DNA of 63,151 nt, the filler included, from Reclinomonas americana ATCC 50394 (Eukaryota): assembly GCA_048213135.1 (NCBI GenBank). It is 4 parts of 2 records of this genome, joined end to end, with 100 filler letters (N's around TTAATTAATTAA, not from the genome) between each part and the next. Parts side by side here need not be neighbours in the genome. Positions count along the whole stretch, not along the records: positions 1 to 17,693 come from PS015103.1; positions 17,794 to 31,361 come from PS015103.1; positions 31,462 to 56,397 come from PS015103.1; positions 56,498 to 63,151 come from PS015104.1. One strand, given 5' to 3'. Made by a program: the position numbers and the translations under genes. Below are positions 3,301-62,915 of the stretch, piece after piece (position 1 is the stretch's first letter; every line of letters begins with the position of its first letter). A model generated the notes under the pieces. That model worked only from the letters and a program-made list of their open reading frames with translations, had not been told where the DNA came from and made no database searches.

Positions 3301-6300
3301 CACATACCTGCCGAGTTGGTGCTTGCCGGCAACACCGACGCCTTTGGGTACGACGGCAACGACATGAGGGTCGACGAGCCGCCACCCACCGGCCGGCCCG
3401 GCATCGCTGGCAGTGCGGAAGCAGACTGGAACAATTCGTACAGCTCCGTGCTGCAGTGGTCTTGAACAAAGAACACCAGCGTCGAGGCCATGGATGTCTG
3501 TGCGCACACAACAGTGTGAGCGACGGTGTTTTTGTTGCAGCGACGGGATTGTCACAGAACTGGTGGTCGCAACAAGCGCTGTGACGGCACGCGACTGGCG
3601 AGCGACACACTGTCACCGGATGCCGCCGCCGACGGCGACACGGGTGTCGTTGTCATGGCGGGTGGCGTGACCTGGGTGCATGGCTTCTTCGCAGGACGCG
3701 GAGCGACCTCTGACGAGTCGTTGGTGTCGGTCGGGGACTGCCACTCATGAGGTGAGAAGAGGGCGAGCGACAGGGGCCACAACACGCCGCTCAGCACGCA
3801 ACTTGTACGGCCACCACGGGAATGTCCACCTCCACAGCGGCATCCACCATCATTGGCTTTGGTGGTGGAGGTGGTGGCGTCGGTCTGCATGCATAGAAAT
3901 CACGGTTAGAGCCTTACTCTTGATTCACCTATGCTGGAAACCTGCAACGCAACAGTCGAGGCAGCGGCTCTTCCATCGCGTCATCGGCATCCATCGCATC
4001 ACTCATTTCCGGTGCCTGCTGCGAGGACGGCATCGCTGGCAGGTCATCGGCCATGTCAACCTGCACCAAATAGGCATCAGTCGCCGAAACTCTTGGATCT
4101 CTCTCCACTCTCCATCTATCAATCTGTCTCTTCTTATCTTTCTTTCTTTCTTTCTTCCATTTCTTCTTTTCGCTTTTCCTCTCTCTTGTTCTACCTCTTG
4201 CGCTCTGACTCTCTCCCTCTCTCTCCCTCCCTCTCTTTCTTTCTTTCNNNNNNNNNNNNNNNNNNNNNNNNNNNNNNNNNNNNNNNNNNNNNNNNNNNNN
4301 NNNNNNNNNNNNNNNNNNNNNNNNNNNNNNNNNNNNNNNNNNNNNNNNNNNNNNNNNNNNNNNNNNNNNNNNNNNNNNNNNNNNNNNNNNNNNNNNNNNN
4401 NNNNNNNNNNNNNNNNNNNNNNNNNNNNNNNNNNNNNNNNNNNNNNNNNNNNNNNNNNNNNNNNNNNNNNNNNNNNNNNNNNNNNNNNNNNNNNNNNNNN
4501 NNNNNNNNNNNNNNNNNNNNNNNNNNNNNNNNNNNNNNNNNNNNNNNNNNNNNNNNNNNNNNNNNNNNNNNNNNNNNNNNNNNNNNNNNNNNNNNNNNNN
4601 NNNNNNNNNNNNNNNNNNNNNNNNNNNNNNNNNNNNNNNNNNNNNNNNNNNNNNNNNNNNNNNNNNNNNNNNNNNNNNNNNNNNNNNNNNNNNNNNNNNN
4701 NNNNNNNNNNNNNNNNNNNNNNNNNNNNNNNNNNNNCTCTTTCTTTCTTTCTTTCTTCTCTCTTTTTTGCTCTCTCTCCCTCTTTCTTTTGCTCTCCCTC
4801 ACTCTCCCTCTTTCTTTCTCACTTCTGCTCCCTCCCTCCCTCCCTCCCTCCCTTTCCCTCCCTCCTCCCTCCCTCCCTCCCTCCCTCCCTCCCTCTCTCT
4901 CTCTTCCTCCCCTCACCCCCTCCCCCTCCCACCCACTCACCTGCGTCACCATCTCCTCCGACATTGCCGCACCCTGCCTCTGCTGTGTGTACAACAACTC
5001 CAGCGAGCTGCGCTTCCGCGTCACTGGGGTGGCTCCTCGCTTCCCCTGCGACACCAGACGCTGGCCCGAGTTGCGCAGTTGCGAGTTGCGCTGCATCAAT
5101 AGCTGACTCTGAAACACTTCGCGAGGCGTCGACACTGCGCCCGGCGTTGCGCTACCGCCACCACCACCGGACCGTGGTGGTGGAGTCTCTGGCCCGACGA
5201 CACTGCCGCCACCGACCTGTGTACCACCGACGGTGATGGCCTGCAGCATCGCCTCCTTGCGCTCCCGATCCTCCTCAATCTCCCGAATCCGCTCGTCGCG
5301 AAACTTGATTTGCGCTCGCACATTTTCCACACTCTGCAACGACTCCAATCGCACTCGCTCCACCTCGGCCTCCTTCAGCTTCTCCACATCTCGGTACTGC
5401 CGTCGCAGATTGAACAGCTCCTTGTCACGTGACTGCAACGAGCCCTCCAGCACGCGGATCTTGCCCTCGCGCACACTCAACTCGTCGTCGCGATGCTTGA
5501 GTTGCATGTCGAGCTCGGCCAGCTTGCTCTCCAGCGCTTGCAGACGGTCCGTGAGGATCTTGTCGACCTTGGCGCCGCCCGTGGCTGCTGCCGCCGCCGC
5601 GAGGGGAAGTGAGAACCAAAAGAAAAATCGAGCAAAACATGGACATTGGCGCACCTTGAGAGACTGGAGAATCCGCCCGTGCGGCGGCCTGGTTGCCACG
5701 TCCGCGCGATGGCGAAATCGGCACGGTGCTGGGATTGGCAGTGGCGGTCGCCATTCGTGCCGTCGATGCAGGATCTGCCATGTTGTGCTGCTGCTCTGTC
5801 GGCTGCAAAGGTGACGGCGGTGTGGGTGGCGGAGGCGGGACCAGTGATGACGATGACGGAGAGGCCTGCGGTACGCTCGCCGGCGGCTGTAGTGGAGGTG
5901 CGGGCGGTGGTCGCAGGGAGCCGGCAAACAGCACCGGTGACATGACAGAGGGCGTCGGCTGCGGCACGACCTGTCGAGCGGGCATGAGAAGGAAAATAGA
6001 TAGCAAGGGAGGAGGAAAAACAAGCAACCTGTGGCGCCGACGACGACGACACTGGCGATGACGATGGTACCGAGGACTCGGTTGGACGAAGCAGGTCGCC
6101 CTCCATGTCGTCGAGATCCATGGCGCGCCAGTCGATGCCAGCTGCGTGAGGAGAAGTGAGAGAGGGAGAGGAGAGGAGAGGGGAGAGGAGAAGGGAGAGA
6201 GAAGAAGAGAGAAGCAGGAGAGAGGAGGAGAGAGGAGGAGAGAGGAAGAGAGAGAGAGAAAGAGGAGGTAGAAGACAGAGAGAGTGAAGAGAGAGAGAGA

Positions 6301-12120: not shown

Positions 12121-15100
12121 ATGGCGCTTCCCATTGTTCCGTCAATTCCGTGCGCACTGCATGCTGGTGGGCTCGGTGTATCTGGTGGCGGTGGCCGCGG
12201 ATGATCAAGCAGATTTTGAGGTGGATATTACGTTGAGACAGGCGCGAGAGTTGCGTGGGGAGTGTGATGGTGGTGGGGCGCGGGAGCGAGGGCCAGGGAA
12301 AGGGAGAGTGATTCTGTGTGACAGACACACTGTCATTAATCGTGACTGACACTGCCGTTGTCTGTGCGACGGACGCGCTCTCGGTTTCTGATCATGTGAT
12401 GAGAAAGACCCGTTTTCGTCCCCTCTCACGCGCTCCCTTCCGCTAATTTCTACCGCATTCGTCTCACTGCTCTCTCCTCTTCTCCCATTCATTTCCTCCT
12501 TCTCTCTCACATGCACACTCCACACTCCACATCGCATCACGTAGTGCTGTGCGTGGACCCTGCACGTGTTGTTTGGCTGCCTTGCATTCTTGTCTCCCTC
12601 TCCCTCGGCCATGATTCATGCACACTCGCGCTTGCCCATCACGAAGCAAAATTTGCTTTCACATTCATGCTCCTCCTGTCCTCCTGACCTCGCTCATTCC
12701 TGTAATTGTCTTGCGCGACACAGTGTGGTCATCAGTTCAGGTGGGCGTGCGGGGCAGGACGTCAACGCAGCCGCGTTGGCACGCCGCGGCCCGAGTTTGG
12801 TTATGGTTAGCTCTGTGTCTTGTGCCTCTCACTATCCATTTCTGTCCTTCCCCCTCACCCTCATCCCTCCACGCGCGCAGGCCCTGGAGGAGATCCTCCA
12901 CGTCCGCGGTGCCACCGACACTGCGCGCGTGCTGGCCCGGAAAGACCGCGATCCGCTGTACTTGGAGACCGACGTCACTCCTCCCCAGTACACGCCGATC
13001 GTGGCCGAGGGAGGCATTCCAAGCAAGCACGCCATTGCANNNNNNNNNNNNNNNNNNNNNNNNNNNNNNNNNNNNNNNNNNNNNNNNNNNNNNNNNNNNN
13101 NNNNNNNNNNNNNNNNNNNNNNNNNNNNNNNNNNNNNNNNNNNNNNNNNNNNNNNNNNNNNNNNNNNNNNNNNNNNNNNNNNNNNNNNNNNNNNNNNNNN
13201 NNNNNNNNNNNNNNNNNNNNNNNNNNNNNNNNNNNNNNNNNNNNNNNNNNNNNNNNNNNNNNNNNNNNNNNNNNNNNNNNNNNNNNNNNNNNNNNNNNNN
13301 NNNNNNNNNNNNNNNNNNNNNNNNNNNNNNNNNNNNNNNNNNNNNNNNNNNNNNNNNNNNNNNNNNNNNNNNNNNNNNNNNNNNNNNNNNNNNNNNNNNN
13401 NNNNNNNNNNNNNNNNNNNNNNNNNNNNNNNNNNNNNNNNNNNNNNNNNNNNNNNNNNNNNNNNNNNNNNNNNNNNNNNNNNNNNNNNNNNNNNNNNNNN
13501 NNNNNNNNNNNNNNNNNNNNNNNNNNNNNNNNNNNNNNNNNNNNNNNNNNNNNNNNNNNNNNNNNNNNNNNNNNNNNNNNNNNNNNNNNNNNNNNNNNNN
13601 NNNNNNNNNNNNNNNNNNNNNNNNNNNNNNTCTCTCTCTCTCTCTCTCTCCCCTCAACCCACCTCATTACTCGAATGACCGGGCATGCCGTACACTGAAC
13701 GCGTGATCTTCCAAATCTCTTCTCTCTATCACTCATTCTCACTCCTACCATCTCATACCTTGCTCTCTCCCCCTCTCTCTCCCTCCCTCCTTCTCTCTTT
13801 TCTTTCTCTCGCTGTCTGTCTGTGCCTCTTTCTCTGTCGCTCTGTTGTATCTTTTCTGTTGCTGTCTCTGTCTCTGTCTTTTGTCAATTTGACTATCACT
13901 CGATGGTCGGCCGTGAACATCATGCCACTAACGGAGCACATGATCGCCTCAAATCTTTACTCTCTCGACGCATACACGCGCCCTCCTTGTCTGCTACCTG
14001 TGCACTTGCTGCTCTTGTTTCTCTCCCTATCTGTCTCCTCCCCTGTCAACTTACCTCTCCTCTCGACGGCCGGTCGTGAACACCGTGCTACACACGAAGG
14101 TCGTCATTTTTCGAATCACATTCCATTTTAGAACACATACAACGCACACGCGCGCTCCGTATCTGCTTCCTTGATGCTTCCCGCTCCCACCATGTCCTCC
14201 CATTCTTTCTCCCTCTCTCTCCTCTACTTTCTCCTTCCTCTGTTGTCAATTTACCTCATATCTCGACACTTGGAGCACTTGATCCTTCCAATTCTCGTCC
14301 CTGTCTCAACACACATATGCACACGCACACACACCCTCCTTGTCCACTGCCTGTGTCCTTCTCTTGTTTTCTCACTCTCTCTCTCTCTCTCTCACCCTTT
14401 CCTCTCTTTCCACTCTGTTTCTCTCTGTCTTCCTCTCTGTCTCCTGTCAATTTACTCACCTCTCGATACTCGGAGCACAATTCTCGTCTCTCTCTCAACA
14501 CAATGCACACGCACCCTCCTTGTCCGCTGCCTTGTGTCCTTCTCTTGTTTTCTCACTCTCTTCCCCCTTCCCTCCTCCCCTCCCCTCGCAGAGTCATGGG
14601 TCTCCGCCGCGCCGACAGCGTGGTCATCAACGAGGACGTACTGTCGGGCATGAAGGCGGCCTCCGTGTCGAATGTGTCGGAGTTTGGCGCCGCCTTTGTG
14701 GCGCCTACCTTGTCGCACCTGAGAAGAGCGCACGGTGAGTCACCACTCAATATTCCGATCACGACGGTGGATTTCTGCAAATGTTCTTCTGTGATATTCT
14801 GTCTCTTTGTACCGTGCAAGAACAGTATAGCAAGGGAGCGAGAACCTCTCGCCCTTGTGTTTCCTGACTCTGCCTTGGCGCGCTGCAGGTGGCGCCTTTG
14901 AGACCGACAACGCACTCAGCTCGGCCTCCGAGGGACCCTCTGGCTCCGCCTCCGCGCCCATCTTCACTCCCACCGCCGCCACGGCATTCACTCCGTCCGG
15001 TGGCTTGTCGCTGACACCCACACCGCCGGCGACGTTCACGGCTCCGGTGCCCACCAAGCCCTCCATTCCTATTCGTTGCGCGTGTGTGTGTCTTTTGGCA

Positions 15101-17793: not shown

Positions 17794-18665
17794 CCTCGTC
17801 ATCCTCGCTCACTTTCCCCGCCAACACGTGCATTCTTCTCGCACATGGTGCCGGTGCTGGTGTGCAGAGCGACTGGATGCAGCGGTGGTTGCGTGCGTTG
17901 CGTGAGGCGCATCCCGATCACGAGCACAGCGACAGCGCAGTGATGGCGTTCGAGTACGACTACATGGCCAATCGCGGGCGCGGACCTCCAGATGCGCATG
18001 CGACACTGGTGCGTGCTCATCGGCGAGCGGCACTGGCGCTGTTGGAGAAGCGGAGGGCGGTGGTCGGGCCCGACCAACCGATACAGCTGGTGCTGGCGGG
18101 CAAGTCGATGGGATCGCGCATGGGATGCCACCTCGCGAATGAGGTGATGCAGGCGGGAGACGAGGATGAGGTGGAGCGAGGATTGCGCGAGGCACTGACT
18201 GCTGTTGCGTGTGTGTGGTGGAGAAGGAGGAGAAGGAGGGAAGAAGGATGTGCTTATTCTGCATGCAGTGCGTGTGCTTTGGGTTTCCGATCAAGGGCGC
18301 GAATGGGGCAGTGCGCAACGAGGTGCTGCATGAGATGCAGACGCCGGTGCTGTTCTGCTACGGCACGCGAGATAGCATGAGCCCAGCGGAGCTGCTGGAG
18401 GCGGCGCGAGAGAAGATGACCAAGTGTCCGCGGCATGAGACGGTGGTGCGTGCACGTGGCGAGAGTGGGGAGGGGGAGGGAGAGGGCGAAGAGGCACTGA
18501 TGTGTGAGCACGCAGGTGGTGGACGGCGGCGACCACTCGCTGGAGCTGCGAAAGACAGATCTCAAGCGGCAAGGGCGCACACAGGCCGATGTCGATGCGG
18601 AGATCCTGCGATCGGTGGTGCACTTTGTGCAGTCGCTGCAGCAAGGAGAGAGCGCGGAGCAGTGA
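17794..18665 (+). CDS. KANSL3/TEX30-type alpha/beta hydrolase, 5' partial, 3 exons
   Basis: Motifs LLAHGAGAG, nucleophile elbow LAGKSMGSR, CVCFGFPI, GTRD and VDGGDHSL give a Ser-Asp-His triad. The first intron starts GTTGCG at 18204. Stop TGA at 18663-18665. Confidence 0.85.
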
Positions 18666-19409: not shown

Positions 19410-22886
<3,477 letters not shown>

Positions 22887-22946: not shown

Positions 22947-25255
22947 CTACAACGGGGTGGTGAGCGGCGACGGCTGCCCACTGCTGCTAGCCGACTCCGC
23001 GTCTGAGGCAGCGGAGGACGGCACTGTCAAAGCTTCCGAAGATTCACCCAGACGCAGCCGTCGACCCGCATGACGACGGCCGAGTGGAAGGTGACCCGTG
23101 GGTGCCTGCACAGAGGTCCGGCGCTTCCATTCACGGATGCTCTGCGGCTGTGAGTGGACGCGACAAAACACACGTGTCAGCGAGACATAAACCGGCAAGC
23201 TGCTTTCCCCGCGCGCGCACGCAACATCCAGCGCCCGCAGTGACGACACCGGAGAGGCGCCACCCAAACTGCCGTAGCTGGGTCGCACCTCCAGACCGCG
23301 CAGAGGCTCCAGATCCGATTGTGAAGCAGCACTGGGGCTCATGGCAATCGCGCCAAAGTTTGTCGAGGAGAGAACGGCGGTGCGCAACAACGTACGCTCA
23401 TTGTCTTCCGTCGCTGGACCGGCGGAGCTGTCGCTGCCGTCGCTGGCCGTGATGAGCGACGGGCCTATCGACTGCGGCAACGCAAACGATGACCCTGGCA
23501 TCGAGGCAACAGCGGCCGTCGTGAGCAACGGGGATGGAGTCGATTTGACCGGTGAGGGATTCGGCGGCGAAATGGTGGGGCCAGCAGATGGGGAGACAGC
23601 CTTGTGTGGCACAGAGGGGACGAGAGGAGAGGGAGTAACAGTCAGCACACGACGACACGGGGCCACAGTGTGAACGAATAAGCCTCACCGTCGACACCGT
23701 TGGCACTGGCTGCGTCAAACGAAACAGGTAGAGCAGGGTGATGGTCGGCACCACCTCCAGCATCATGTAGTACACGAACAGCTCGATGCTGCGGTTGGTA
23801 AGGTAATTGTCGCTGCTGTCCACGTCCAGCAGGATGATGATGATGCTCTCGCCCACCATCCACAGGCATCGCACGATAAATACCACCGAGCACAAAATCG
23901 TGGCCACCACGAATTCCTGCAGAGCGGGGGCGTGTGAGAGTCCAGCATCCACCAACAGCGACCTGCAAGCAGCGCAACTCGTAGTCGGCGAGCACGCGTG
24001 GCTGACACGGCATCCTTGTCGGACATGTAGCGATGCAGTCGCGTGCCGTACAGCACAAAGAGCACGGAGAACGTCACCGATACTGCATGTGAATCGAGAT
24101 GAGCACACATTGCGCATGGAAAGGAAGACGCCATCAACGCACCGGCAAAGACGAGGGCAATCGAAAATATGCGCTCCAGCCGAGCACCTGCATCCGTCGC
24201 CAGTAAGTCACCGAGCACCAACGCAGTGGGAGTGAAAGAGAATGTACACGCCGCAACTGAAATTGGCGAGAGCCATGGCCAGCCAGAACAAGCCGGTGAC
24301 GGCATAGGCGATCAACACCAGCATCCAAAACGTCAATCGAATCTTGTGCCGCATCGCCAGCGTGAGCTGCTTCTTCAGGTCGTGGTACAACTCGACCCAG
24401 AAGTAGCACAGCACAACATAGCACGAAAAGAAACACAGCGCCCCCACCCTACACGCATCACACAACAATGAGCGAGACAATCAACAAAAATGCTCCGTGA
24501 CCAAACGCAACGAGTTCATCACAAAGATGACATGGTTCGACTCGTTGAAATGCGTAAAGCGGAACTTGGCAAAGTTGACCACGCGCACTGCACATCAACT
24601 TAATTCTCTTTTTCCTCAACACCCCGCGCCACTACTCACAAACTCACCAATCATAAACAACAGCGCAATCACATGAAATAGCAACTGCACCGCAGGCGCA
24701 GTCGCCGCCCGCCTCTCCTCCAACAACGAGATGCTATCGTGTCCACTCGACATGCTCTGCGCATCGCCTCCCTCCACCAGTCCACTCGGTGTCACCTCAT
24801 TGCCCGCAGCGTCTTTCAGAGTCCCTCCCTGGCCTGTCTCTTGCTGCTCCACATCAGCAGTGTCTTTGCTCGACGACCCCTCAACGCCCTCGTATCGTTT
24901 CCGTCGCCTCCGAGGTCGATGTCGATGTCGACAGCAACAGCCGCGGCGACAGTGACAACATGAGAGCAGTGCGGAGCAGAGGAAGCAGGGAAGGCGAAGG
25001 CGGATCACTTGCACAGAGGTCCACAGGAGCATGAGAGCGTACACACCACAGCTGTGCGGAGAGAGAGTGGGAGAGAGAGAGAGAGCAAGACACATGAGTT
25101 CGGATCCCTGATAACATGCCATCATTCTCTCTCTCACTCACACGCGACTCTTTCTCTCACTCCCTCTCTCTCTCTGTTCGTCTATGTTCACGTTATATTG
25201 CACTCAACAGTGTGAGTCGAAGACACCGCCAGAGCGTTGTCTCATCATCGTCCAT
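22947..25255 (-). CDS. TOM1/THH1 (DUF1084)/GPR137-like multi-pass (7TM) membrane protein with Ser/Pro-rich cytoplasmic tail
   Basis: Seven hydrophobic segments after splicing, with LCFFSCYVVLCYFWVELYH, LFVLYGTRL, CSVVFIVRC and FVYYMMLEVVPTITLLYLFR, characteristic of this family. ATG at 25255. Confidence 0.7.
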
Positions 25256-44000: not shown

Positions 44001-47000
44001 GAGGTGAGCAAGTCTGCGCCACACACATGCATGCATACGCGCCCGTGTGCCACACTCACCGAACAGCATGCGCATTGGTGTCGGCCACGTATAGCACACC
44101 CGCACCCTTGTCCACGGCAATACCGCGCGGCGCTGAAAATGCTGGCTGCGCACTGTCGTCGGCGCCAACTGTCCACGCCGTTCCCGTGCCGGCCACTGTT
44201 GTCGTCTGCTGCGTACTCAAATCGATGCGTCGAACGCAGTGTGCCTGTCTCATGATACTAGCGAGTGAGCTTCATAATCCACTTTTTGCTACCACAGAAT
44301 GTTACGAATTCACCTGCGTCACATAGAGGTAGCTCGCGCCGGCAGATTGCTCCGCGATAGCAACATCATATGGTCTGCGACCACACACGGGGATGGTGAG
44401 ACAAATAATCACAAGAGCCAGCGCAAACTCACACAAACACGCAACTGGTTGAATCGCGCGGTGGTGGCATCGCCGTCGACGAGTCCCGCCTGTCCGGTGG
44501 TGGAGCCAGCAAAGTGCTGCACGGAGCCAGTGGCGGCAATGATCTTGCGCACACGGTGGGAACTGTGGCGAGAATAGGTGAGCGCACTGCACAGAGAGAC
44601 TGAAGGAGGAGACAGGCGTCCACGCACCCCAGCTCGACAACATACAAGTTGCCGTTCTTGTCGGCGGTGATGCCCTGCAGAGGAGAAGAATGTCAGTGAT
44701 GCGCTCGACAAACACACACTGCCGACACCACGAGCCACGCAACTCGAGGCACATTGAGCTGCGCATTCGTCTTGATGCCATCGACCAGGCCAGCATTGCC
44801 GCCCACAAACGTATTCACAGACGCCGAAAACGGGTTCGAAGCACTCGCGAGTGCCAGCTGGAAGTAGTTTGCCGAATCCGCGCTCGCCGTGTTGGCAACT
44901 TGTGCAGTGAGTGTGGCCTTGAAGTAGCGGATGTCGGTCACCGACGTGACACTGACGGTGGCGGCCAGAGGCGCGGCGAGGGTGGTCAGCGTCTTGGTCG
45001 ACGCCACGTCCATGATCATGTCGGAGGAGATGGTGGCAGCGCGGAACGTGTACGTGCTTGAAGGACGCAGAGCGCTAACAGGCGCCGATACCATGGAAGT
45101 GACACCGGGGGCGGTGGTGGCCGGCGTCGTCTGCACGCGGTTCGGCAACAGACTGGCGCGCTTGACGACGTGCTGGTTGTTGGTCAACGCAAACTCTGCG
45201 CATCGCGGTAGCGAGTGAGTTAGAGACAAAGAGAGATGGCTGGCCTGGCTTTTTTCGATGCTCACCAGAAATGTACAGCGTAGTCAGCTCAGTGAACACG
45301 CCGCCGTACTGTTGTTGCGCAAGAATGCCATGAGGCGGAGGCACGAAGCATCAAAATGTGATTCACGACACGACAAACCACGACATTCAGTTTGGCACCG
45401 GGGAAGAACGGGTTGGCAGTGGCCGCCAGTTCGCCAACAAATGTGCTCACCAGCCGGCCAGTGAGATCAATCATGCGGATGCCGGGGTAACCAACCTGCG
45501 CGAAGTGAATGGTGAGCAACACAAGACAGAGACATACCACATCGCGACTCTGTGCACGCAACATCGACAGCGTACAGCATGTCGGTAGACACAGTGTTGA
45601 ACAGCAGGCTGGACACCTGGCCAAAGGTGGCAACGGCAAAGTCGCCATTATCAGTTCCGGCCGCGGCACATGTGCCGACGAGGAGCGAGCTGGTTCCAGC
45701 AGCCAGGTCGACTCGCACGATGCACGTGTTGGGATTGCCGCTGCTGACGTAGAGCAGGCGCCTGGTCGCATCCAGTTTGAGGCTGACGGGCGAAGTGAAC
45801 GACGCCGTGGTCGCGCAGTCTCCCACGGCGGTACCGGCAGAGCCGCGCTGCCCGCATGCCACGGCAACATTGGAGCCATCCGTGCCCAATTTCCTGTGAG
45901 GAAAAAAAACATCTGTAAGACACCACACAAGAAGCAACCAACGTTGCAGAACTCTTCCTTCCTCACCTCACAACGTGCGCCGCCGAGTCCGCCACATAGA
46001 GAACACCGGCAGCACGATCCACGTCAATGGTTCGCGGGGTGCTGAAACGCGGGAACGCACTGTCGTCGTCGTCGGCCCACGTCGTACCATCGCCGGCCAC
46101 GGTAGTCGTCATTTGGTCCGCCACTCCGACACGACGAACCGAATGCGACTGCAACGAGATGGCAGCGCGTCAGCGACATGCGCTACAGCGGAAACAGGGA
46201 TGACAATGGCACGTAACTTGCGTGACGTAGAGATAGGACGGTCCATTTCCAGTCGCAGGCTCCTCAATGGCGATACCAAATGGACTGCAGTACGAGGATA
46301 CCGAGTTTAGCAGTCGGATTACAGTCACACGTGCGAGTGGATAGACGCAACGAAGTGAAGCGCGCAGTGGTTGCATCGCCGTTGGCGTTTCCGGCAACGC
46401 CAGACGGTGAGCCGGCGAAATGCGTTACCGCACCCGTCGTCGTGTTGACCTTGCGCACGCGATGTGTGCTGAAACGCATTATGAGACACACCATGTAGAC
46501 AAATAGTACTTCAAGAAACAGTGCAGTCACTCACCCATTTTCAACAACATACAGATTGCCTTTCTTGTCCGCGGCAATGCACTGTAGTACAAACGCAAAT
46601 GCGGTAAGTAGACTGTGGACGGCCTGTCACTTATTCAACAAAGCGCGACGCAACTCGAGGCTGTGAAAACTGCGCCGTGCGCTTGATGCCATCTTTCAGG
46701 CCTTGCGCACCGCCTGCATACACTTCGACGGTGGGTGCCAGCGNNNNNNNNNNNNNNNNNNNNACGCCGCGTCGCGACCAAATTGGAGCCAGTTGGCCGC
46801 CGTCAGCAGGCCGTCGACAGACACGCGCACAGTGCCGTTGATGGTCGCCGAGGTGGTCGTAATCCCACTGGCGTTGTTCGTGGCAGCGTTCAGAACCTTA
46901 TCGGTGGTGAAGGTGACGGTGGAGCCGCTAACGAGGGCGCGCTTGGAGATGGCGGCGGCGCGGTACTTGTACGAGGTGGAAGGTTTCATGGCCGACACAC

Positions 47001-49159
47001 TGGCCGACAGTTGCGCAGTGGTGCTGGCGGCCGTGGTGGCCGGCGTGGCCGCGATGCGGTTGGGGAGGAGGTCGACGAGGCGGACGAGATGCAGGTCCTG
47101 CTCGAAGGAGAAGTCTGCGGGAACACAGGGAAAGGGGTGGTGAGGAGGGGGCAAGAGGGGAAGAGAGAAGGGGGAAGAGAGAAAGGGGAAGAGAGAAAGG
47201 GGAAGAGAGAAAGGGGAAGAGAAAAGGAAGAGAAAGGGAAGAGAAAGGGAAGAGAAAGGGGGAGAAAGGGGAGAAAAAGGGGAGAAAGGGGAGTAAGGGG
47301 GAGAATGGGGAAGGAAAGGGGGAAGAAACGGGAAAGAAAGGACAATGCAGCAGGAGAATAAGAGGTCAAGTGAGAAAGAATAAGAGGCATGACAGGAGCC
47401 GAGAATCACGAGATCACACAGACATCAAACTAGGTGACTCACCCGTCACATACAGCGTTGCGCCATCGGTGAATGTGGCTCCACCCTGTTCGACGCGTTA
47501 AAACAACAAGTGGCGATAGAGCAGCTCGGTCAATCCACATGCTCACCAGAGTGCGGAAGAGAGCAATCGCAGATCCACTCTGAATGCCAGACTGGCCGGC
47601 TTGCCCGATCACCGTGCTGACGAGGGAGGTGGCAAATTGAAACACGCGAATGCCCGCGTAGCCAGGCTGCAGGCAACAACAAGAGTATAGTGGAGATGAG
47701 AACAACGGCACCCAATGAGCGTCTCCACAAGAACGCAACATCCAGAATGTAGAGTGCATCGCTGCTGGGCGAGAGCAAAAGAGTGGAAATGGAGAAGAAG
47801 CGGGCGACTGTCGTGTTGCCGTCTGTGTATCCAGTGGACTCGAGTACTCCGGTGACCAGCGACAAGGTGCGAGTCTGCAAATCAACGCGCAATACGGCCG
47901 ACCCGAGACCACTCGAAGTGTACAAGGCCTTGCCGGCTACATCCAGCGCAATACCGCCAGGGAAGCGAAAGCGGGCCACGCTGGTGCAGTCGCCGGTGGT
48001 CAAGTCGTCAACAAACCGCTTGCCGCAGTACACGGTGAGCGCAGAGCCATCGGTTTTCATGTACCTGCACGAGCGAAAACGGTGAGACCCATTTTCCGCA
48101 CTCACTCGCATCTACCACACGTGCGACTCACATAATAGTCTGCGCATAGCGATCAACCATGTATACAGCATCGCCAGCCCCGTCTACGGCAATGTCATTG
48201 AGATAGATGAATGGCGACGAAGTGCCGTCATCGTTTGGCGTCCACGAGCTGTTGCCGTCGGCCACCGTAAAGGTGGTCGCAGAGTCCAGTTGAATGCGAC
48301 GAACGGACGTATTCTGCACCGAGTGAGGATGAGGGAAACAAACAGAGGCGAAATGCATTGCGTTCGTCGAGTGTGCAACGCAACATCGGCCACATAGAGG
48401 ACACCGGGTCCGACCGCCGTCTCGTCAATGGCGACACTAGTTGGACTGTGCATTTTCACGAGAGTACAAGAGTTGAGTGACGGAGTGCGAGGCGTTGATG
48501 CGCACGGTCACTCGACGACGCAACGATTCAAACTGAGCCGTCAGCGGATCGCCGTCTGTCGCTGTACCACATGTCGTGCCCGTAAGCGTCGATACAGTGC
48601 CGGTGGAGGTGGAGACGACACGAATGCGACAGCCGCTGTTGGTATGTGCACAGTGAGAGGGGGCGCAGAGGACTCAACACCAAACACCAAACAAGTGGCA
48701 CGCAACTAGAGCTCCGTCACGTATAGATTGCCACTCTTGTCGGTGACAATGCCCTGTGCCGTTGCTCCACAGGTCAGCAATCTTGCAACAACAGCGGCGA
48801 GGAGACTGGAGCAAGCGACGCAACAGTAGGCGCAAAGAACTGCGCATTCTGCCGAGACCCGTCGACACCATTAGACGCCGCCTGCGATCCGGCATAGGTG
48901 GAGACCGCCGGCGAGAAATCGGCAGTCGAGGCGCCAAACTGGAAGTAGTTGGTGAACGGTAGGGAAGAGTCGCCGTTCACAATGGTGCCTTGCAGCGTGG
49001 CAGTGGACGTGGCCACATCCATGGCCGCGGCAGTGGTGGCCGACGATGCCGCAGCGAGGCAGGAGGTGACTGTCGGAGGGAGAGGGGGAGTGAGATGGAC
49101 GGAGAAGTATGGCAAGGAAGCGAGATATCGAATGTGGTGGGTCTGACGGACTCGGACAA

Positions 49160-54350: not shown

Positions 54351-56356
54351 ACAGCAACAGCAACAACAACAACAAGAACACCAAAATGCCGATGCGCCGC
54401 ACAAGGTGGACGACAGCCTCGCCGCCCTGGACAACGCGGTGGATCGCATGGACGAATGGCGACAGCGTGAACGAGATCGAGCGCAGCGCTTGGAGGCGGA
54501 TCTGGAAGTCGTGCAGCGTCACTTTAGCCAGCGCGGTACGTGGATGGAGGCGCAATGGTGTTGAAAGGACAATCGCTCCAACTCATCCTGCCGTCTCTCC
54601 TCAGTATCTCTCTCGGCCTTTTCGTGGGATCAAGTGGTGCAGATGAGCAACAATTTTGCGCAGCACCTCGGTGGCGGTGGACAGGCGCGAGTCTTCAAGG
54701 GACACTGGGCCGGGCAAGATGTGGCGGTCAAGGTGTTTGACAGTGCGCTTCCGTGGTGCATCGAGTCGTTCTCCAATGAGGTGAGGCAGCAGCAGCAGAG
54801 AGCTGAGAGGAAACAATGTGGTGACGATTGGTTTCTCTCGTGTGCAGCTGGAGAAGCTCAAGGGCGTCAGTGTGGCTGGAGTTGTGCCACTGATTGGATT
54901 TGCCGAGTGTGCTGATGGCAAGCGATGTGTGGTACTGGAGGCGATGAGGTGCGTGGGAGGGAGAAGAGGAAGGAGAGAGAAGTGAGTTTCGACTTCACAA
55001 GGCGCACTTTTATGTTTTCCTGTCGTCTCGCCCATTGCGAGGGATTATGGAAAACGGAGAGATGCACTGCTCACGACCCGTTTCCCGAATGCTTAGTGAT
55101 CACAATCTGGAGCATCGGCTGTTGGAGTGGGAGAAGTACGGCTTGCCGGTCATGACGATCGAAGCGCGCATGTCGTGCATGCTGCGGTGTGCCGAGGCAG
55201 TGGCAGAGCTACACAAGTTGCACTGTGCTTGGAAAACTAGTCTTTTGCTGGTACCCGTCGACTAATCATTCTCTTGCTATGTGCGACAAATGCTTCTTCC
55301 AGTTTGGTGAGTGAGTGAGGGAGGGAGAGCGTGTGTATGTGTGCCTATTCTCTGTTTTTCCTANNNNNNNNNNNNNNNNNNNNNNNNNNNNNNNNNNNNN
55401 NNNNNNNNNNNNNNNNNNNNNNNNNNNNNNNNNNNNNNNNNNNNNNNNNNNNNNNNNNNNNNNNNNNNNNNNNNNNNNNNNNNNNNNNNNNNNNNNNNNN
55501 NNNNNNNNNNNNNNNNNNNNNNNNNNNNNNNNNNNNNNNNNNNNNNNNNNNNNNNNNNNNNNNNNNNNNNNNNNNNNNNNNNNNNNNNNNNNNNNNNNNN
55601 NNNNNNNNNNNNNNNNNNNNNNNNNNNNNNNNNNNNNNNNNNNNNNNNNNNNNNNNNNNNNNNNNNNNNNNNNNNNNNNNNNNNNNNNNNNNNNNNNNNN
55701 NNNNNNNNNNNNNNNNNNNNNNNNNNNNNNNNNNNNNNNNNNNNNNTCCTTTGTTGCTCACTGTTGCCAATTTTGCTGTGGCGTACTCGCTGTGCAGAAT
55801 GGTACGAAGACAACTGCATCGTGTCCATTCCTCTTCGTCTGCCAGTTGCTGACCTATTTTCCCTGCTGTTTCCAACAACAGTGATCCATCGCGACCTGAA
55901 GCCAGCCAACATTCTCTTCAACCACAGTGGAATGGCGTACATCTCGGACCTGGGGGTGGCGCACTGGTTCCGCACCGAGGGGGTGAGTGTCTCCTCTCAT
56001 TGCATGTCATTGTCTCCTTTTTCCCCCCTCACTCTTTCCCTTCCCTTCCTCTCGGCGTAGACACACGTGGCTGTTCACTTTGCTGGCGACCCAAAGTACG
56101 CCGACCCCAAGGCCATGCACGGCCAGCTGCGACCGAGTTCCGACGTGTTCTCTCTTGGTCTCGTCCTTCTGCAAGTATTCAGCGGCCTGCCGATCGAGGA
56201 GCTCCACCGGCGATTGGACGTGCTGGAGGAATTGGTGGAGAGCGACGAAGGTGACGAAGCCATGCTCGATGCAGCTGCTGCCGAGTTGGCCGACACGCGC
56301 GCCAACCACCTGTGGCCCGCTGATGTGTGCGGACGGATTGTGAGGCTTGCGCTTCG
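53267..56356 (+). CDS. TPR - polyQ/coiled coil - RLK/Pelle-like kinase, copy 3 (3' end, presumably RING, lost at the linker)
   Basis: Shorter intronless TPR block and polyQ at ~54317-54375. The kinase has HLGGGGQARVF, VAVK, HRDLKPANIL, DLG and GDPKYADP, with the same intron positions as copies 1 and 2. Microexons TTTG (55303-55306) and AATG (55798-55801). Confidence 0.85.
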
Positions 56357-56595: not shown

Positions 56596-57822
56596 CTGCG
56601 GAGTTGCGATTCGAGTATGGGTCCATGTAGATGGCACCAATGGTCACAAAAATCATCAGGAAAATGGCCACGAAACGGAAAATGGCCATGGCAATCTGCA
56701 AAGAAGCGAATGAGAGGGCGCGCGATCAACACACACTGCGCCCTGAGACACACAAACAGACCTGCACGATTTTCTGCTCGTGCAACTCCATGCACGTGAG
56801 CGGCACGACCACAAGGCCGAAAATCGCCACGTACACCAGATAGTGACCGAGACACGGCCACGACGAGTCCGTGTACACATCGCACGTGGACCACGTCTCT
56901 CCGTTGATGGAGATGGGGAAAGGAATATTGGCCGTCACCGACTGACCAAACACGGCGGCGTAGGACCACAACGCGCCGTACATGTACAACGAGATGCACA
57001 CCTCGTACATGATCTTGCCCCACTGGCCGAGGAAGAGCAGGCAGAGCGAGTTCATCTCGATTCTGGGTGCGATAGTGAGGCACCAAGACGAGCAGATGCT
57101 CAAGTGACAACGAAACTTTCTCGCCAGGTCATACTGCGGTGACCCGACAGCCGCCTCGCCACCATCCTTGCCACTTCTGGCCACCATAGGTTCTCTGCTT
57201 TTAACGGGGGGGCAGAGCAAGAAACGCTTCAATCACTGCACGCAGTGAAGAAGAGGGCGGAGGATGGACAGAGACTAACCCACTATCCAAGTCCACATGC
57301 AGCATGGCATTGGCTCGTGTCAGAGACTCCAAAATCCACTGGGTGGTGATGTAGGCAATCACGCTGACGGCCACCATGAAGAATGGACCAGAGAGGAGAC
57401 CTCCTTCCTGCATGCACACACACACACACGCACGCACGCACGCACACACACACACACAGTCAGAGAGAGAGACACAGCGACAGCACGAATGCAATACATC
57501 ACACCTGGAATGCATGCGGCACACCGAGAATGCCAACTCCACTGCCACGCGTAGTAAGCACATACTCTCTCACACACACGTGCGCACTCACACATCAACG
57601 CAACAGAATGTAGTTGAGAATGAAACAGTAGCCAGTGAAGCTCCCGTACAAGCCACCGACCTGCACACAACACTCAGTCAGCACACTCACTCTCACTCCA
57701 CACGCACTCTCTTATGTTCTCTCAACTGGAACAGTGGCTTCCGTGGGCGCTGTGCGAGACCGTGGTGAGTCGCTGACACCACCAGCGGTGCTCGAGAGCA
57801 AGCGTGAGCGCTCGTCGAGCAT
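56596..57822 (-). CDS. TMEM104-like amino-acid/auxin permease (Aa_trans) transporter, 3' partial
   Basis: Spliced YGSFTGYCFILNYILGVGILGVPHAFQEGGLL, WILESLTRANA, IEMNSLCLLFLGQWGKIMYEVCISLYMYGALWSYAAVF and VPLTCMELHEQKIVQIAMAIFRF, with multiple TM helices. Confidence 0.8.
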
Positions 57823-57911: not shown

Positions 57912-60900
57912 TCATATCTTCAACCCCGACGTGCAGTCGCCGCTCGTGGCACATGCGGTCATTGTGGATGTCGCCACCACGCCACTCTTCGGCACACACT
58001 GCTGTGTCGACGCCGTAAATGTCCACGAGCCGCAGGCGGTCAACTGCGAGCACCACAGCGAGCATGCTTGTGGCCCAGTTGTTGTCTTAATGGCCCACGT
58101 GAGATCGCCACCAGGTCGATCTGCACACAATGTCAGTCACAGATCTCTCCCTCACGTCTCCCCTCTGCGAAAACTCACCCGTGCTGGTCTGGAACCCACT
58201 GCTGTCATACGCCGCCGCACTCGTCTTGCGTCCCGACACCAAGCAGAAATGCGAGCCGCACACGTTGCTGGTCTCTGCATTGGCGGCTACAGCCGGCACG
58301 GTGCTCTGCGTGCAACAGTAGTGAGCTAGTCGATTCCTCACAAGTTCCTGCTTATTACCGATCACGTGCCTTCAGCGTGCACACACTCACTCCATACGTA
58401 TTCGATGCCGCAGCAGCATCCAGGAACGTCCACGATCGACACAGTGAGGACTGGTCACATAATTCACAACACCCGACCTCGCTGGCAACAGAAGGCATCA
58501 CAGCCAGGATCGCGCCGCCAGGTCGATCCACAGCCTCGAACTGGCACACTTCCAACGCCGCTGCTCGATGTGACGGAGATTGAGACGCCGATGGCCGACA
58601 ACGGTGCACAGTGCGGAATCTCAACGCAACGAGCCACAATTCCATTCTGTACTGTTGCACAACCAGTATTCGTTGCTGTACACGCACAGCAATCACCGTC
58701 AGCATCGCCCATCTCTCTAACTGACGCCCACAGCTGCGCAGAACGTGCGAGCCTAACGAGGAAATGAACATGACTGAGTGAAAGACACAGCGCCCGACCA
58801 CTTTCTCTTCCGTGGAGAGCGAGAGATACCCCCAACAGGCCGTGCGTATCCCTCTGCTCAATAAATGCACACTCCACCATTCGACGCACGCGCACACACT
58901 TCTCCACCCCTGACATCTCTGCGCTACAATCTTCACTCATTAACGTCGACACTGCGGCACGCTCGCACGCGAGGCGCAAGAAGAATAACCAACCATCACC
59001 TACAACTTCCCTTCTACTCTTTCCTTCCTTTCCGTTTCCCTCCCTTCCCCACCCACGTCACCAAGTCTATGGGACGTGGACTTGCATATGGAGCACAAAA
59101 CGCCAAACTACCCCTCTCCTCTTCCCCCCTTCTCCCCTCCCCTCTCCCTTTCCCATCACGCACCATAGACGATCGTGAACTGCTTGGTGTACGTCAGCGC
59201 GCCATCGCTCACTTGCACAAACACTTGCAGTCGCCGACTCAATGGCGGAGCCACCGAGATTGTCAGTTGATTGCCGCCAACCAGACTGAACAGAGCCGCA
59301 TGCACACCGCCGACAATGCTGAATGTCGGCGTCTGTCCCGTGTTGAGATCCACCATGCTCAGAGTGCCCACCGCGAATGGCACTGTTGCACTCGAGTACG
59401 TCTGCGCACCCGACAGGAGAATGTCGCTCGGCGCCACATTTCCTGCACACCTCACTCGTTTAGCCAACAAGACACACACAAGCCCCATACGTCTATGCAG
59501 TCTCTCCTCCCTCACCAATGGCGAATGCGGAGAGCGCCACATACGAGCTGGTCGAAGTCCATCGCGTGCACAACTCGTAGGTGCCAACAGCTGCACCTGC
59601 CGCCCCAATCGTCAGCGTGATGCTGTTCGAGTTGCCGAATGCACTGCTGATGCTGGTGCTCGCCACGGCCGTCGGAGGTGTCGTGGCGGCACAAAGCGGA
59701 GTGGCAAGCACATACGCCGATGCGTCGGCCGAGTTGTTCAGCAACCCGTATCCCGTCACCGTCACCAGCTGGCCCGCCAGTGCCGACACGAATGTGGTCG
59801 ACAGCGATGTCACAGTGAGAACTGCAGCACATTTTTTGCGACAAATCAGCATCATCTGTGCTCGACACTAATGCAAACGCCCATTCAACCAGTACTCACC
59901 CGCCGTCACACTGAACGTCTTGTCGACAAACATGGACGGTGTACCATTGTCGAACGAGCGAACCGTGACAACAAGTGGACTGGCCGACTGGCCCGCCGAG
60001 GTGATCTGCAGCTGCGCGCCCGCGCTCACCAAAAACGCACTGCCGTTCGCTCCACCGCTGACCGCATACGTGAATGATTGACTACCATCATTGTCGATGG
60101 TGCTCATCGTACACAGTGGCACGTTGGCTGTCGACGGCGCGACGTAGGTGGTTGTACCGGTGCAGGTGAGATCAGTCGGCACGGAGTTGGAGGTGGTGAA
60201 TGACATTGTGGAGCCGGTGAGGGTGCTGGGCACGGTGGAGGTGGAGAGGGCACGAAAGTAGTACGTCGAGTTGGCGGCGAGTGACGTGAGTGACGCGGTG
60301 AGAGCCGTGCTGGAGGCGACGCCTGAAGAAGCTGGAGTGGCCGAGACGGTGGTGGAGCCGATGGTGAGTCGGCGGATGGTGAGACCATTGTAATCTTTGG
60401 TGCAAGATATTGAGCAGGAAGACAAGGGATGACGAAGGTTCAATCTCTTCTTTGATCACGCACCCGCAATATTCAGAGTAGATGATGCGACGTCGTACGC
60501 CATTAACACCTGGACTGACACAATGAGAGACGAATCAGATTAGTCGTCACAAGCACCAGACGAACGAACCGGGCCATTGAATCGAGCACTTGTCACCGGG
60601 CTTCCGTCGGTTGCTCCTGTGGCTCCCGCAGCGCCGGCGATGCTTGTAACGACACCGGTACCAATGACGATTTGGCGAATGGTGGAGTTGGTAAACTTCA
60701 AAAGCCACGTCAATAAATAATGCGAGAAAATACTTCACGCGCACTGCATAACAACCAGACGCAACATCAGCAACGTAAAGAACGCCACGCGCTCGATCAA
60801 GCTGGATGCCAATTGGCGTATTGAATCGAGCCGCAGTGCCTGTGGCATCAGTCGACCCTGTTACGGCGGTGAGGGAGCCGGCCAGAGTTGAAACAGTCAT

Positions 60901-62915
60901 CGCCAGCATGTCGATGACACGAATGTTGTGACGGCTGCGATCGGCTGCTCACACCCAGACGAGTAAGCGCACATCTTGTGTCACAAAGCCTCTCTCCCGC
61001 GCACACACGCACGCAAACACACGCACCGACATACAGCCGATTGCCTGTCGTGTCCAATGCCACACCATTCGGTGCACCAAACCGTGCTGTTGGTACGCAC
61101 GCTCCGTCAACTGCACCCGACGACCCAATCGTACCGCAGAAGGTGGTGACCTCGCCGCCGTATGTGACCTGCGAGATCAGGTCTGAGCGTCGTGTGCACT
61201 TGAACAAAAAACAGAAGGCACAGATACTCGCTCGCTCGCACCTTCCTGACAGCATTGTTATTCCAGTCGCCAACGAACATGACTTTGTTCGCCGAGTCAA
61301 CAACGATGCCGTGCGGAGCGTTAAACCTCGCGCTCGATCCGGTGCCATTTGCAGTGCCGACAGACCCGTTGCCAGCCAGAGTTGATACAGAGCCCGAAGG
61401 AGTGCTCACACGGACTGCGTGATTTCCCTACAGTGCATCGCGGGATGAGAGATCGGCCGTGCACAAAAGTCAGCTGCTACATGGCATATGTGTACGCAAC
61501 ACCAACAATGTACAGATATCCAGTGGTCAGGTCGATCGAAATGTCGGTTGGAGAGGTAAATCGCGCAGCAGCGCCGATCCCGTCCACAAAACCAGATACT
61601 CCTGCTGTTCCCAGAAATGTCGAGGTCACACCTCCGCTCGTCACTCGTCGAATCGTGTGATTGAACTGATCGCAGACGAATGCCGTGCCCGATGCGTCGA
61701 TTGCAACACTCTGCCAATCACCTCGATCATGAGAGATACGGCTAGTGATTTGTGGGACGAATTACGCACAACTGGTCTGTTGAAACGAGCAGCAGTCCCC
61801 GTGCCATCCGTCGAGCCAGACATACCCGCCGTGCCCAACCACGTTGACACAGCTGGCGTGACACCAAATGCAGCCACCGAAGGCGCCCACTCGAACGAGT
61901 TGCTCATTGTCGACGCGGCCACAGAGTTGCCCACCACCGCATTCAATGTCGCCATCGACGTCGTCACACTGCTGGCCGCCAGCGTGGCCAGCGACTGGGC
62001 GACTATGGCACAACAAAGAGGAAGCATTCAGCAGCAGGAACACATCAAGGACGACGAGTAGAAGAAGTAAAAGAGGAAGAATGAGAAGAGAAAGATGAAG
62101 GAGGAGGAAGACGACAAGAATATGAACATACACCGATCAAGAATTTGGTGGTGGAGATGGTGGAGGAGAAGAAAAAAGAAGAAGAAGAGGAAGATGATGA
62201 ACAAGTGCAAAAAAACAGAAAGGGAGAGACGTGGCACCACATCAGGCTGACCTGTGGTGATGGTGAACGCCTTGTCGAAGAACAGCGGCGGCGTTCCATT
62301 GTCTGTCGACCGGATCGTCACCGCCAGCGGGCTGCCCGCCTGCCCCGCCGCCACAATCACCAATGACTGTCCGCTGATCGAAAACACTGCACTGTTCGCG
62401 CCGCCGACTATCGAGTACGTGAACGACTGACCCGCATTCGCGTCCGTTGTCTGCAGCCCGCACACGACTTGATTCGCCACCGACGGCGACACATACGTCG
62501 TCGACGAGCAGCTAATGTCGGTCGGAGCCACATTGGTGGTGGTGGTGAAGGAGACGGTTGCGCCATTGATGGTGCTGGGCGCGGAGGTGACACCGACAGC
62601 GCGATAGAAGTACGTCCAGTTGCTCACCAATCCAGTCAGTGAGGCGGTGATGGAGGTGGCAAGGGAGCCAGTGGCAGAAGCGGGTGTGGCCGACACCGAT
62701 TGCGACGCAAGTGAGAGGCGACGGATGGTGTGCGCACCAAAGTCGGCTGCCAGCACCGACGCCGTCGATGCATCGAATGCGAGTTGATTGATCGAGTTGA
62801 AGCGTGCCGTGGTCAGAGCGCTACCATTGGCCGATCCGCTCACGCCCGCCGCGCCGCCAATGGTGCTCATTGACGAGTCGGACACTCGGAGTTGCCGCAC
62901 GGTATTATTGGCATT
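57912..62915 (-). CDS. Second giant NHL/FN3-like/cadherin-like protein ending in two PAN/apple domains, no TM anchor seen; 5' partial
   Basis: NHL blades (GSTDATGTAARFNTPIGIQLD..LYVAD-FTNSTIR), FN3-like halves (ASLTGLVSNWTYFYRA), three cadherin-like domains (NVAPTDI...TTDANAGQSFTYSIVGG) and an IPT-like domain. PAN domains: DRPGG...CCELCDQSSLCRSWTF...CTLKS and DRPGGDL...CSLWCSQLTACGSWTF...CVPKS. Stop at 57912-57914. Confidence 0.75.

Follow-up and report, generated by a model that had tools for sequence, protein, structure and literature searches.

Two donor classes, one displaced by a nucleotide, in the predicted introns of Reclinomonas americana

Why should so many introns of one genome begin with GTTGCG, and why after exons that do not end in G? 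The question is raised by a stretch of 63,151 nucleotides (nt), filler included, of Reclinomonas americana ATCC 50394 (assembly GCA_048213135.1), which joins four parts of records PS015103.1 and PS015104.1 and which we call the window. Coordinates count along the whole joined stretch, and a minus-strand donor (5' splice site) is named by the position of its donor G. The original prediction placed introns beginning GTTGCG at 35 positions and introns beginning with related hexamers at seven more; all 42 are present at these positions and on the strands given, and all begin with GT. By our reading of the genes, the window carries two classes of U2-type GT-AG introns, one with G/GT(G or A)(A or C)GT donors and one, about a third of the total, with W/GTTGCGT donors, where the slash marks the exon-intron boundary and W is A or T. 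In the second class, hereafter the T class, the conserved G and the T that follows it sit one position deeper in the intron than in the first, or standard, class, with the G at +6 as predicted.

A recurrent heptamer at intron starts

The hexamer GTTGCG is found 82 times in the window, against 45.9+-7.2 in shuffled sequence, and 0 of 100 shuffles reach 82. For the heptamer GTTGCGT the figures are 33 seen and 10.45+-2.54 expected, again with 0 of 100 shuffles reaching the observed count. T stands at +7 in 29 of the 35 claimed GTTGCG sites and in 4 of the 47 unclaimed ones; the true motif is the heptamer GTTGCGT and not the hexamer GTTGCG. Thirty of the 33 heptamers sit at inferred intron starts, these being 29 claimed donors and one unlisted candidate (23225, minus strand), which is probably a donor that the original prediction missed. 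The others are two exonic copies (17888 and 17897) and one antisense copy (41631). A set of 80 metagenome loci from other eukaryotes, each with eIF4A (534,115 nt in all), served as a control; there the heptamer is at background level, with 0.95 occurrences per 10 kb against 5.23 here, and none has a donor-like context.

Does the class appear when donors carry no weight? Our dynamic-programming gene finder used a codon usage score only, and later a simple branch-plus-acceptor bonus, with every GT treated as equal. GTTGCG was the commonest donor hexamer in this donor-blind model (12 of 168 at first; later 16 of 192, with 7 for the runner-up), which picked 14 of the 42 claimed positions where about one is expected, the chance for any given GT being 2.5%. 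Self-trained on its own donors, the gene finder used GTTGCG in up to 28 of 202 cases. A further run scored both donor classes (the motif-scored model, which gave no model for 25.3-28.2 kb); here, on strands backed by domains or coding score, 40 of 121 introns are T-class and the run finds 33 of the 42 claimed sites. The share of T-class introns, earlier put at a quarter to a third, is thus about a third in this model. Since antisense strands score nearly as high as sense strands, these gene models serve for proportions only and not as an annotation, and the donor-blind counts are lower bounds.

The sites are given below with the evidence for each; modules A, B and C are those of a giant surface protein described in the next section.

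12250..12256, plus: T-class donor GA/GTTGCGT; motif and motif-scored model, frame support weak
15075..15081, plus: T-class donor TC/GTTGCGC; motif and motif-scored model, upstream frame score 14, weak
18204..18210, plus: T-class donor GCT/GTTGCGT, Abhydrolase_11 gene; donor-blind model, first residue of following exon is profile position 102
20541..20547, plus: T-class donor ATT/GTTGCGT, ankyrin LPI/HVAA; ankyrin motif whole only with the cut before GT
20862..20868, plus: T-class donor GTC/GTTGCGT, ankyrin QSV/PILAAA; 34,34,34 period only with GT at +1, donor-blind model
21776..21782, plus: T-class donor AT/GTTGCGG, ankyrin; phase-2 join to LPAHIAAENGH, motif-scored model
22395..22401, plus: T-class donor CTT/GTTGCGT, ankyrin DGRL/PIHWAA; frames, motif-scored model
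34813..34819, plus: related donor A/GTTGAGT, CotH gene; donor-blind model, frames
35309..35315, plus: T-class donor AA/GTTGCGT, CotH RGEYTV-N-FPK; frames, donor-blind model
37214..37220, plus: T-class donor CCA/GTTGCGG, CotH GP/LWD; frames, donor-blind model
55217..55223, plus: related donor candidate AA/GTTGCAC, third kinase copy; upstream peptide as at 26624 and 31193, gap follows, weak
3796..3802, minus: T-class donor CAA/GTTGCGT; frames, motif-scored model, low-complexity protein, weak to moderate
3947..3953, minus: T-class donor CT/GTTGCGT; donor-blind model, frame support weak
8086..8092, minus: T-class donor candidate T/GTTGCGT; motif only, flanking frame scores negative
23219..23225, minus: T-class donor candidate GAT/GTTGCGT, absent from the original prediction, low-complexity tail of the THH1/TOM1-like protein; motif-scored model, branch CTGAC/CTCAC and CAG about 80 nt downstream
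23972..23978, minus: T-class donor candidate CGA/GTTGCGC; ambiguous, in-frame rival donor 30 nt upstream with the same acceptor
24251..24257, minus: T-class donor A/GTTGCGG, THH1/TOM1-like gene; donor-blind model
24505..24511, minus: T-class donor TC/GTTGCGT, THH1/TOM1-like gene; first residue of following exon is profile position 92, motif-scored model
25202..25208, minus: related donor candidate GTTGAGT; motif only, frames weak
26618..26624, minus: T-class donor AA/GTTGCGT, kinase copy 1; with two 4-nt exons gives SLHKHNVIHRDLKP
27971..27977, minus: related donor candidate GTTTCGT; motif only, frames weak
31187..31193, minus: T-class donor AA/GTTGCGT, kinase copy 2; kinase motif, motif-scored model including both 4-nt exons
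39845..39851, minus: T-class donor A/GTTGCGT; donor-blind model
40134..40140, minus: T-class donor AC/GTTGCGT; donor-blind model
40463..40469, minus: T-class donor A/GTTGCGT; donor-blind model
43655..43661, minus: T-class donor GAT/GTTGCGC, module B position 6 (LYIVD/); homologous to 45562 and 47739
44439..44445, minus: T-class donor CA/GTTGCGT, module B position 3; homologous to 46351 and 48524, donor-blind model
44737..44743, minus: T-class donor CGA/GTTGCGT, module B position 1; homologous to 46654 and 48824
45556..45562, minus: T-class donor GAT/GTTGCGT, module A position 6; module alignment, donor-blind model
46211..46217, minus: related donor CAA/GTTACGT, module A position 4 (YVTQ/); homologous to standard CAG/GTGAAT at 44313, gapless junction
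46345..46351, minus: T-class donor TC/GTTGCGT, module A position 3; module alignment
46648..46654, minus: T-class donor CGA/GTTGCGT, module A position 1; joins QPR/CIAADKKGNLYVVENG, homologous to 44743 and 48824
47733..47739, minus: T-class donor GAT/GTTGCGT, module C position 6; module alignment, donor-blind model
48378..48384, minus: T-class donor GAT/GTTGCGT, module C position 4; module alignment
48518..48524, minus: T-class donor TC/GTTGCGT, module C position 3; module alignment
48700..48706, minus: T-class donor TA/GTTGCGT, module C position 2; homologous to standard 46534 and 44627, TAG if read on, donor-blind model
48818..48824, minus: T-class donor ACT/GTTGCGT, module C position 1; module alignment
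57110..57116, minus: related donor candidate GTTTCGT; ambiguous, model takes 57279 with the same acceptor
57598..57604, minus: T-class donor CT/GTTGCGT; motif-scored model, weak to moderate
57720..57726, minus: related donor candidate GTTGAGA; ambiguous
58624..58630, minus: T-class donor candidate C/GTTGCGT; motif only, frames weak
60759..60765, minus: T-class donor GAT/GTTGCGT, LYVAD/FTNSTIR; spliced translation, motif-scored model
61494..61500, minus: T-class donor GGT/GTTGCGT, LYIVG/; frames, motif-scored model
46528..46534, minus: standard donor GG/GTGAGT, module A position 2, for contrast; module alignment
44621..44627, minus: standard donor GG/GTGCGT, module B position 2, for contrast; module alignment
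44307..44313, minus: standard donor CAG/GTGAAT, module B position 4, for contrast; module alignment
17888..17894, plus: exonic GTTGCGT with G at -1, apparently unspliced; codons TGG TTG CGT, Abhydrolase_11 exon
17897..17903, plus: exonic GTTGCGT with C at -1, apparently unspliced; codons GCG TTG CGT, Abhydrolase_11 exon

The cut, the last exon base and the 3' end

Where would these introns be cut? The best frames upstream and downstream join at the first branch-plus-CAG acceptor, and removal of the putative intron restores the frame or the motif with good support at about 29 of the 42 sites, the other 13 being weak or ambiguous (3802, 3953, 8092, 12250, 15075, 23978, 25208, 27977, 55217, 57116, 57604, 57726 and 58630). 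A donor beginning with GC, 3 nt downstream, would keep the frame as well, so this alternative has to be excluded. In the ankyrin gene a cut before GT spaces the motif P-[ILA]-[HLV]-x-A-A at 34, 34, 34 residues, whereas a cut at the GC would destroy one motif and give a spacing of 35, 34; the junctions of the paralogous modules also speak against it. The GT that lies 5 nt downstream gives the wrong frame as a donor, and in the kinase it would leave a one-residue-short LHKLLIHRD.

In both kinase paralogues a GTTGCGT intron together with two 4-nt exons yields SLHKHNVIHRDLKP and restores the HRDLKP motif, and both of the 4-nt exons of copy 2 were recovered by the motif-scored model. Protein alignments are gapless across the module junctions, including those with paralogues that have standard donors. 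At 48706 reading on past TA/GTTGCGT would create TAG, as the original prediction had pointed out, and the motifs on which it anchored several junctions (GP/LWD and FPK in CotH, LYVAD/FTN in NHL and LPI/HVAA in ankyrin) are kept by the junctions inferred here. Exon-by-exon Pfam coordinates back the acceptors (Abhydrolase_11 at 102, THH1 at 92 and Pkinase at 120) and do not resolve the donors. Searches with a THH1-like exon gave no homologue for a comparison of junctions, and searches with a module exon gave no relative among metagenome contigs. On the evidence of frames, motifs and paralogues, we consider it very probable that the class is real and is cut before the GT.

The claim that no T-class exon ends in G is borne out. 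The -1 base is A in 20, T in 15, C in 7 and G in none of the 42 sites, against G in 43 of 55 standard donors (Fisher p=1.2e-16), and the donor scores took no account of this base. The sole sense-strand heptamer with G at -1 (17888) is exonic and apparently unspliced. Furthermore, the -1 base of the T class is selected for A or T, beyond a mere avoidance of G. At the 16 phase-0 T-class junctions, among which homologous positions are counted repeatedly, the last codon ends in A 5 times, T 10 times, C once and G never, compared with 2.0, 3.2, 6.6 and 4.2 from synonymous usage. Rare synonyms ending in A or T (GAT, CGA, CAA, ACT, GCT and CTT) fill 15 of these 16 last codons, where 5.2 are expected.

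The giant surface protein at 43300-48900 (minus) contains three modules in tandem, each of about 450 residues, in which eight intron positions are conserved, and it forms a built-in comparative data set on donor evolution. At position 2, module C has TA/GTTGCGT, module A has GG/GTGAGT and module B has GG/GTGCGT. At position 4 the donors are GAT/GTTGCGT in C, CAA/GTTACGT in A and CAG/GTGAAT in B. The donor class follows the -1 base at both of these homologous intron positions, and at one of them it does so with the same amino acid, Gln being CAA in one module and CAG in another. Judging from the module alignment, the two donor classes replace each other at homologous intron positions as the -1 base changes.

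The T class has its own, tighter consensus. Standard donors have G at -1 in 78% of cases and are relaxed at +4 and +6, whereas T-class donors have no exonic G and are near-invariant from +4 to +7. The description of the T-class donor as an ordinary donor with an extra T does not hold, as the base before the conserved G is A in 3 and C in 39 T-class sites compared with A in 32 and C in 21 standard donors (p=3.7e-8). Among the standard donors +3 is G in 43 of 55, with GTG much above GTA.

At the 3' end the two classes are alike. The 24 short T-class introns all end in AG (GCAG in 16, ACAG in 4, others in 4), and a YTNAY branch motif is found in 21 of them, a median of 18 nt from the acceptor, as it is in 37 of 48 standard introns, at a median of 17 nt; both features are those of U2-type introns. 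Common to both classes are the branch motifs CTSAC (CTGAC, CTCAC) and CTCAT, the dominant GCAG acceptor, a similar composition and a similar median intron length (71 in the T class, 74 in the standard class). The 24 short introns, compared by eye, resemble each other only in their first 7 nt, and the internal complement ACGCAAC, within one mismatch, is not enriched (4 of 24 T-class and 3 of 48 standard introns). With nothing in common beyond the first 7 nt, no internal complement and the same 3' features, the T class should be neither U12-type nor a family of mobile introns. U12-type introns are marked by an RTATCCTT donor and a TCCTTAAC branch site. Nothing like either occurs here, and the branches are CTGAC, CTCAC and CTCAT as in the standard introns. 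The T class is like U12-type introns in being a second intron class with a highly conserved 5' end and, hypothetically in this case, a dedicated small nuclear RNA (snRNA); it differs in that its 3' halves are indistinguishable from those of the standard class.

What reads the displaced donor

According to the original prediction, canonical U1 snRNA pairs with these sites in a shifted register, the intron's G+1 standing in for the missing G-1; such a picture would account for the displaced G and T and for the part played by G+1. The premise is sound: shifted and bulged registers of 5' splice site and U1 go back to Roca and Krainer (2009), whom Tan et al. (2016) cite, and the latter confirm them in human, where validated registers are estimated at 1.5% of sites (PMC4856993). 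We took the canonical U1 end AUACUUACCUG in the form given in PMC4856993 and computed its duplex energies. The 55 standard donors average -7.47 kcal/mol, 597 random GT sites average -2.81 and the 42 T-class sites average -1.36. The T class binds canonical U1 worse than random GT does, and the +1 register does not supply it with a usable, more stable duplex; the pairing that was originally proposed is not supported.

We also tried each of the 4096 possible sequences at U1 nt 4-9 as a reader. Canonical U1 ranks 2 for the standard donors and 3995 for the T class, and the T class is best read by AUACGCAACUG, at -10.85 where random GT gives -4.57. The most that any one variant achieves for both classes together is an advantage of about 2.2 kcal/mol over random GT. 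Position 5 of canonical U1, a U or pseudouridine, would select A, which is the opposite of the 39 C and 3 A found in the T class. Taken together, the energies and ranks suggest that the standard class is the footprint of canonical U1 and the T class the footprint of something else, though with pseudouridines and U1 proteins left out of the energy model this is an argument and not a proof. On these models a variant U1 or U6, which was the fallback of the original prediction, fits better than canonical U1 in a shifted register. The best reader of the standard donors has C at U1 nt 6, fitting the G at +3, and the main U1 of R. americana may differ from the canonical one at nt 6.

What, then, might read the T class? 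We propose that recognition is by base pairing to UGCGU at +3 to +7, one nt further into the intron than in standard donors, and that cleavage would still take place before the first GU. The reader would not be the canonical U1 5' end. It would be a U1-type snRNA with a 5' end that has co-evolved towards ACGCAAC, either as a second variant beside canonical U1 or as a modified sole U1. That an RNA reads the T class in the +1 register we regard as fairly probable; that this RNA is a non-canonical U1, co-evolved or variant, is the best explanation of the modelled pairing, and we put its probability at roughly 0.45. A more specific and rather unlikely version has two parallel readers on otherwise identical U2-type introns, with canonical U1 for G/GURNGU and a U1-like snRNA of about ACGCAAC for W/GUUGCGU. 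If this were true, introns could sit after codons unable to end in G, and the major spliceosome would be split at the U1 step only.

Donors and U1 ends that match each other in unusual forms are described in a preprint (bioRxiv 10.1101/2022.06.08.495308). Entamoeba has a U1 with AACAAAC and GUUUGUU donors, Mastigamoeba has a U1 with ACGUAC and GUACGU donors, and in Physarum standard and modified U1 candidates both exist, which is stated as a result for presentation elsewhere. Like the T class, these systems have an atypical extended donor in which +3 and +7 are U, and a U1 face that has changed to fit it, the latter being hypothetical in our case. However, Entamoeba has a single U1 candidate and one atypical donor for nearly all of its introns, whereas here two donor classes lie within the same genes.

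Several points weigh against a non-canonical U1, or against the class as a whole. All of the splice junctions were inferred from reading frames, motifs and paralogy, the sample is a single 63-kb window, the gene models are noisy and 13 sites are weak. Many sites are paralogous (the duplicated kinase genes and the three tandem modules), so the counts are not independent and are inflated. The two tandem heptamers at 17888-17903 (plus), with G and C at -1, encode W-L-R-A-L-R inside a conserved Abhydrolase_11 exon and are apparently unspliced; either the motif alone is insufficient or both are alternative donors. The preference for A or T at -1 is not predicted by pairing to U10 of U1, and no pairing model that we tried explains W. 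A standard U1 goes together with a preference for C at +4 in Thecamonas and Mamiellales (bioRxiv 10.1101/2022.06.08.495308), so a preference for C need not mean a changed U1. Lastly, a search of the window with Rfam gave 0 matches of any kind at the gathering threshold and no snRNA at E<=1, where the matches were to microRNA (miRNA) families only.

Could canonical U1 read the T class after all, in a +1-shifted or bulged register with G+1 paired to C9 of U1, and with U1 proteins and later U6 and U5 contacts to offset a weak duplex? The human shifted sites (PMC4856993) show that such a register exists, and like the T class they are GT-AG, have the conserved G/U one position deeper and G+1 opposite U1 in place of G-1, and are cut before GU. 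Here the minimum-energy duplex with canonical U1 lies in the +1 register at 19 of the 42 T-class sites, T at +3 would pair with A7 of U1, and yeast and Giardia splice nearly all of their introns despite a mismatch to a standard U1 (bioRxiv 10.1101/2022.06.08.495308). Nevertheless, the predicted binding is below that of random GT sites, at rank 3995 of 4096. GUUGAGU should exceed GUUGCGU in this case, yet the counts are 3 and 39, and the tightest consensus is unexpected at a weakly bound site. The human examples pair well with canonical U1, which T-class sites do not; the T class, unlike them, has its own consensus with C at +5 and A or T at -1, and it accounts for about a third of introns (40/121) where validated noncanonical registers are estimated at 1.5% of human sites. 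We find this reading doubtful.

Equally doubtful is the idea that the two classes are set at the hand-over to U6 and U5. In PMC11732430, the split of donors into an exon-anchored AG//GUNNN class and an intron-anchored NN//GURAG class is traced to U5 loop 1 and the ACAGA box of U6, with -1G and +5G compensating for each other in several species. The T class would then be the intron-anchored half, with one bulged U and little role for U1. The likeness is considerable: there, as here, a class with -1G stands beside a class without it, the two are anticorrelated, and small local changes convert one into the other. The standard class, with -1G in 78% and relaxed +4 and +6, and the T class, with no exonic G and a near-invariant +4 to +7, would fit the two halves, and C is preferred at +4 beside a standard U1 in other lineages (bioRxiv 10.1101/2022.06.08.495308). 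However, the described intron-anchored class keeps the normal register, with G at +5 and RAG, whereas the block of the T class is displaced by one U and reads GCG. In a hand alignment the ACAGA box is not complementary to UUGCGU, as only G+6 and U+7 would pair, and the described classes have no constant additional nucleotide separating the cut site from the U6 helix. When placed against NN//GURAG directly, the T class has the expected lack of -1G (0/42) and a strong intronic consensus, yet C occupies +5 in 39 of 42 and the conserved G comes at +6, so that it does not belong there. The T class works like the intron-anchored class but displaced by one position.

Much less likely is that the sites are not donors or are cut elsewhere (at the GC 3 nt or the GT 5 nt downstream, or in wrong gene models), with the motif enriched for some other reason. 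A crude gene finder that is noisy on antisense strands, the 13 weak sites, the two exonic heptamers and the reliance on sequence for the junctions all leave room for this. Against it stand the ankyrin spacing and motif, the gapless paralogous junctions, the TAG at 48706, the kinase motif, the 14 of 42 sites picked with no donor information and the contrast at +7 between claimed (29/35) and unclaimed (4/47) sites. The least probable reading takes the conserved 5' end as the terminus of recently spread mobile introns (introner-like elements), which would suit a uniform first 7 nt and the 62-83 nt length of many introns, but the 24 short introns have no similarity past these 7 nt, standard introns span the same length range, inverted copies of the terminus are not enriched (ACGCAAC, with up to one mismatch, in 4/24 and 3/48), and the introns are older than the module triplication and switch class in place.

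Noncanonical U1 registers have hitherto been regarded as a rare rescue mode. If the T class is as we describe it, a displaced donor is the single commonest donor sequence and a second discrete, high-information solution for the 5' splice site, tied to the last exon base. This bears on whether donor classes are defined by U1 pairing or by the later U5/U6 hand-over, on how far the U1 5' end has co-evolved with its targets in an intron-rich genome, and on whether variant U1 snRNAs have dedicated intron sets. There is also a practical side, as gene finders trained on one donor model would mis-annotate about a third of R. americana introns. A literature search on GTTGCGT-type donors, shifted registers, divergent U1 and atypical protist sites, outside of which lay subscription journals and supplements, found no such donor class among the papers listed. 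To the original prediction we add the heptamer as the motif, the preference for W at -1, the site at 23225 and the switch of class between homologous intron positions.

Other genes and features of the window

The window is gene-dense and intron-rich, with 45-58% G+C and 22 assembly gaps. Pfam matches include eIF4A, an ankyrin-repeat protein, a THH1/TOM1-like membrane protein, an Abhydrolase_11 protein, two tandem kinase-RING genes, a TPR protein and a CotH-like protein. Two surface proteins of very large size, whose repeats are NHL-like and cadherin-like, were also recognised by eye in spliced translations. At 11166-11285, adjoining a gap, sub-threshold matches to several Rfam miRNA families occur on both strands of what looks like a simple repeat.

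The coiled-coil/kinase/RING gene is tandemly duplicated at 25300-32400, and the introns of the two copies are near-identical. Both paralogues (26370-26760 and 30925-31330, minus) appear to contain two consecutive 4-nt exons, GCAT and AATG, among three well-formed introns, and the two exons would jointly encode K-H-N-V within the LHKHNVIHRDLKP motif. A third, partial kinase copy at 54250-55320 (plus) adjoins a gap, and its homologous donor reads GTTGCA.

For the eIF4A exon, the closest relative in a search among 5.8 billion proteins has 78% identity. The N-terminal exon of this gene (52444-52599, minus, donor CAG/GTGCTT) lies beside a 20-N gap at 52390-52409, on the opposite strand to, and downstream of, the remainder of the gene (51114-52287, plus). 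The arrangement looks like an inversion in the assembly or like the beginning of a second copy.

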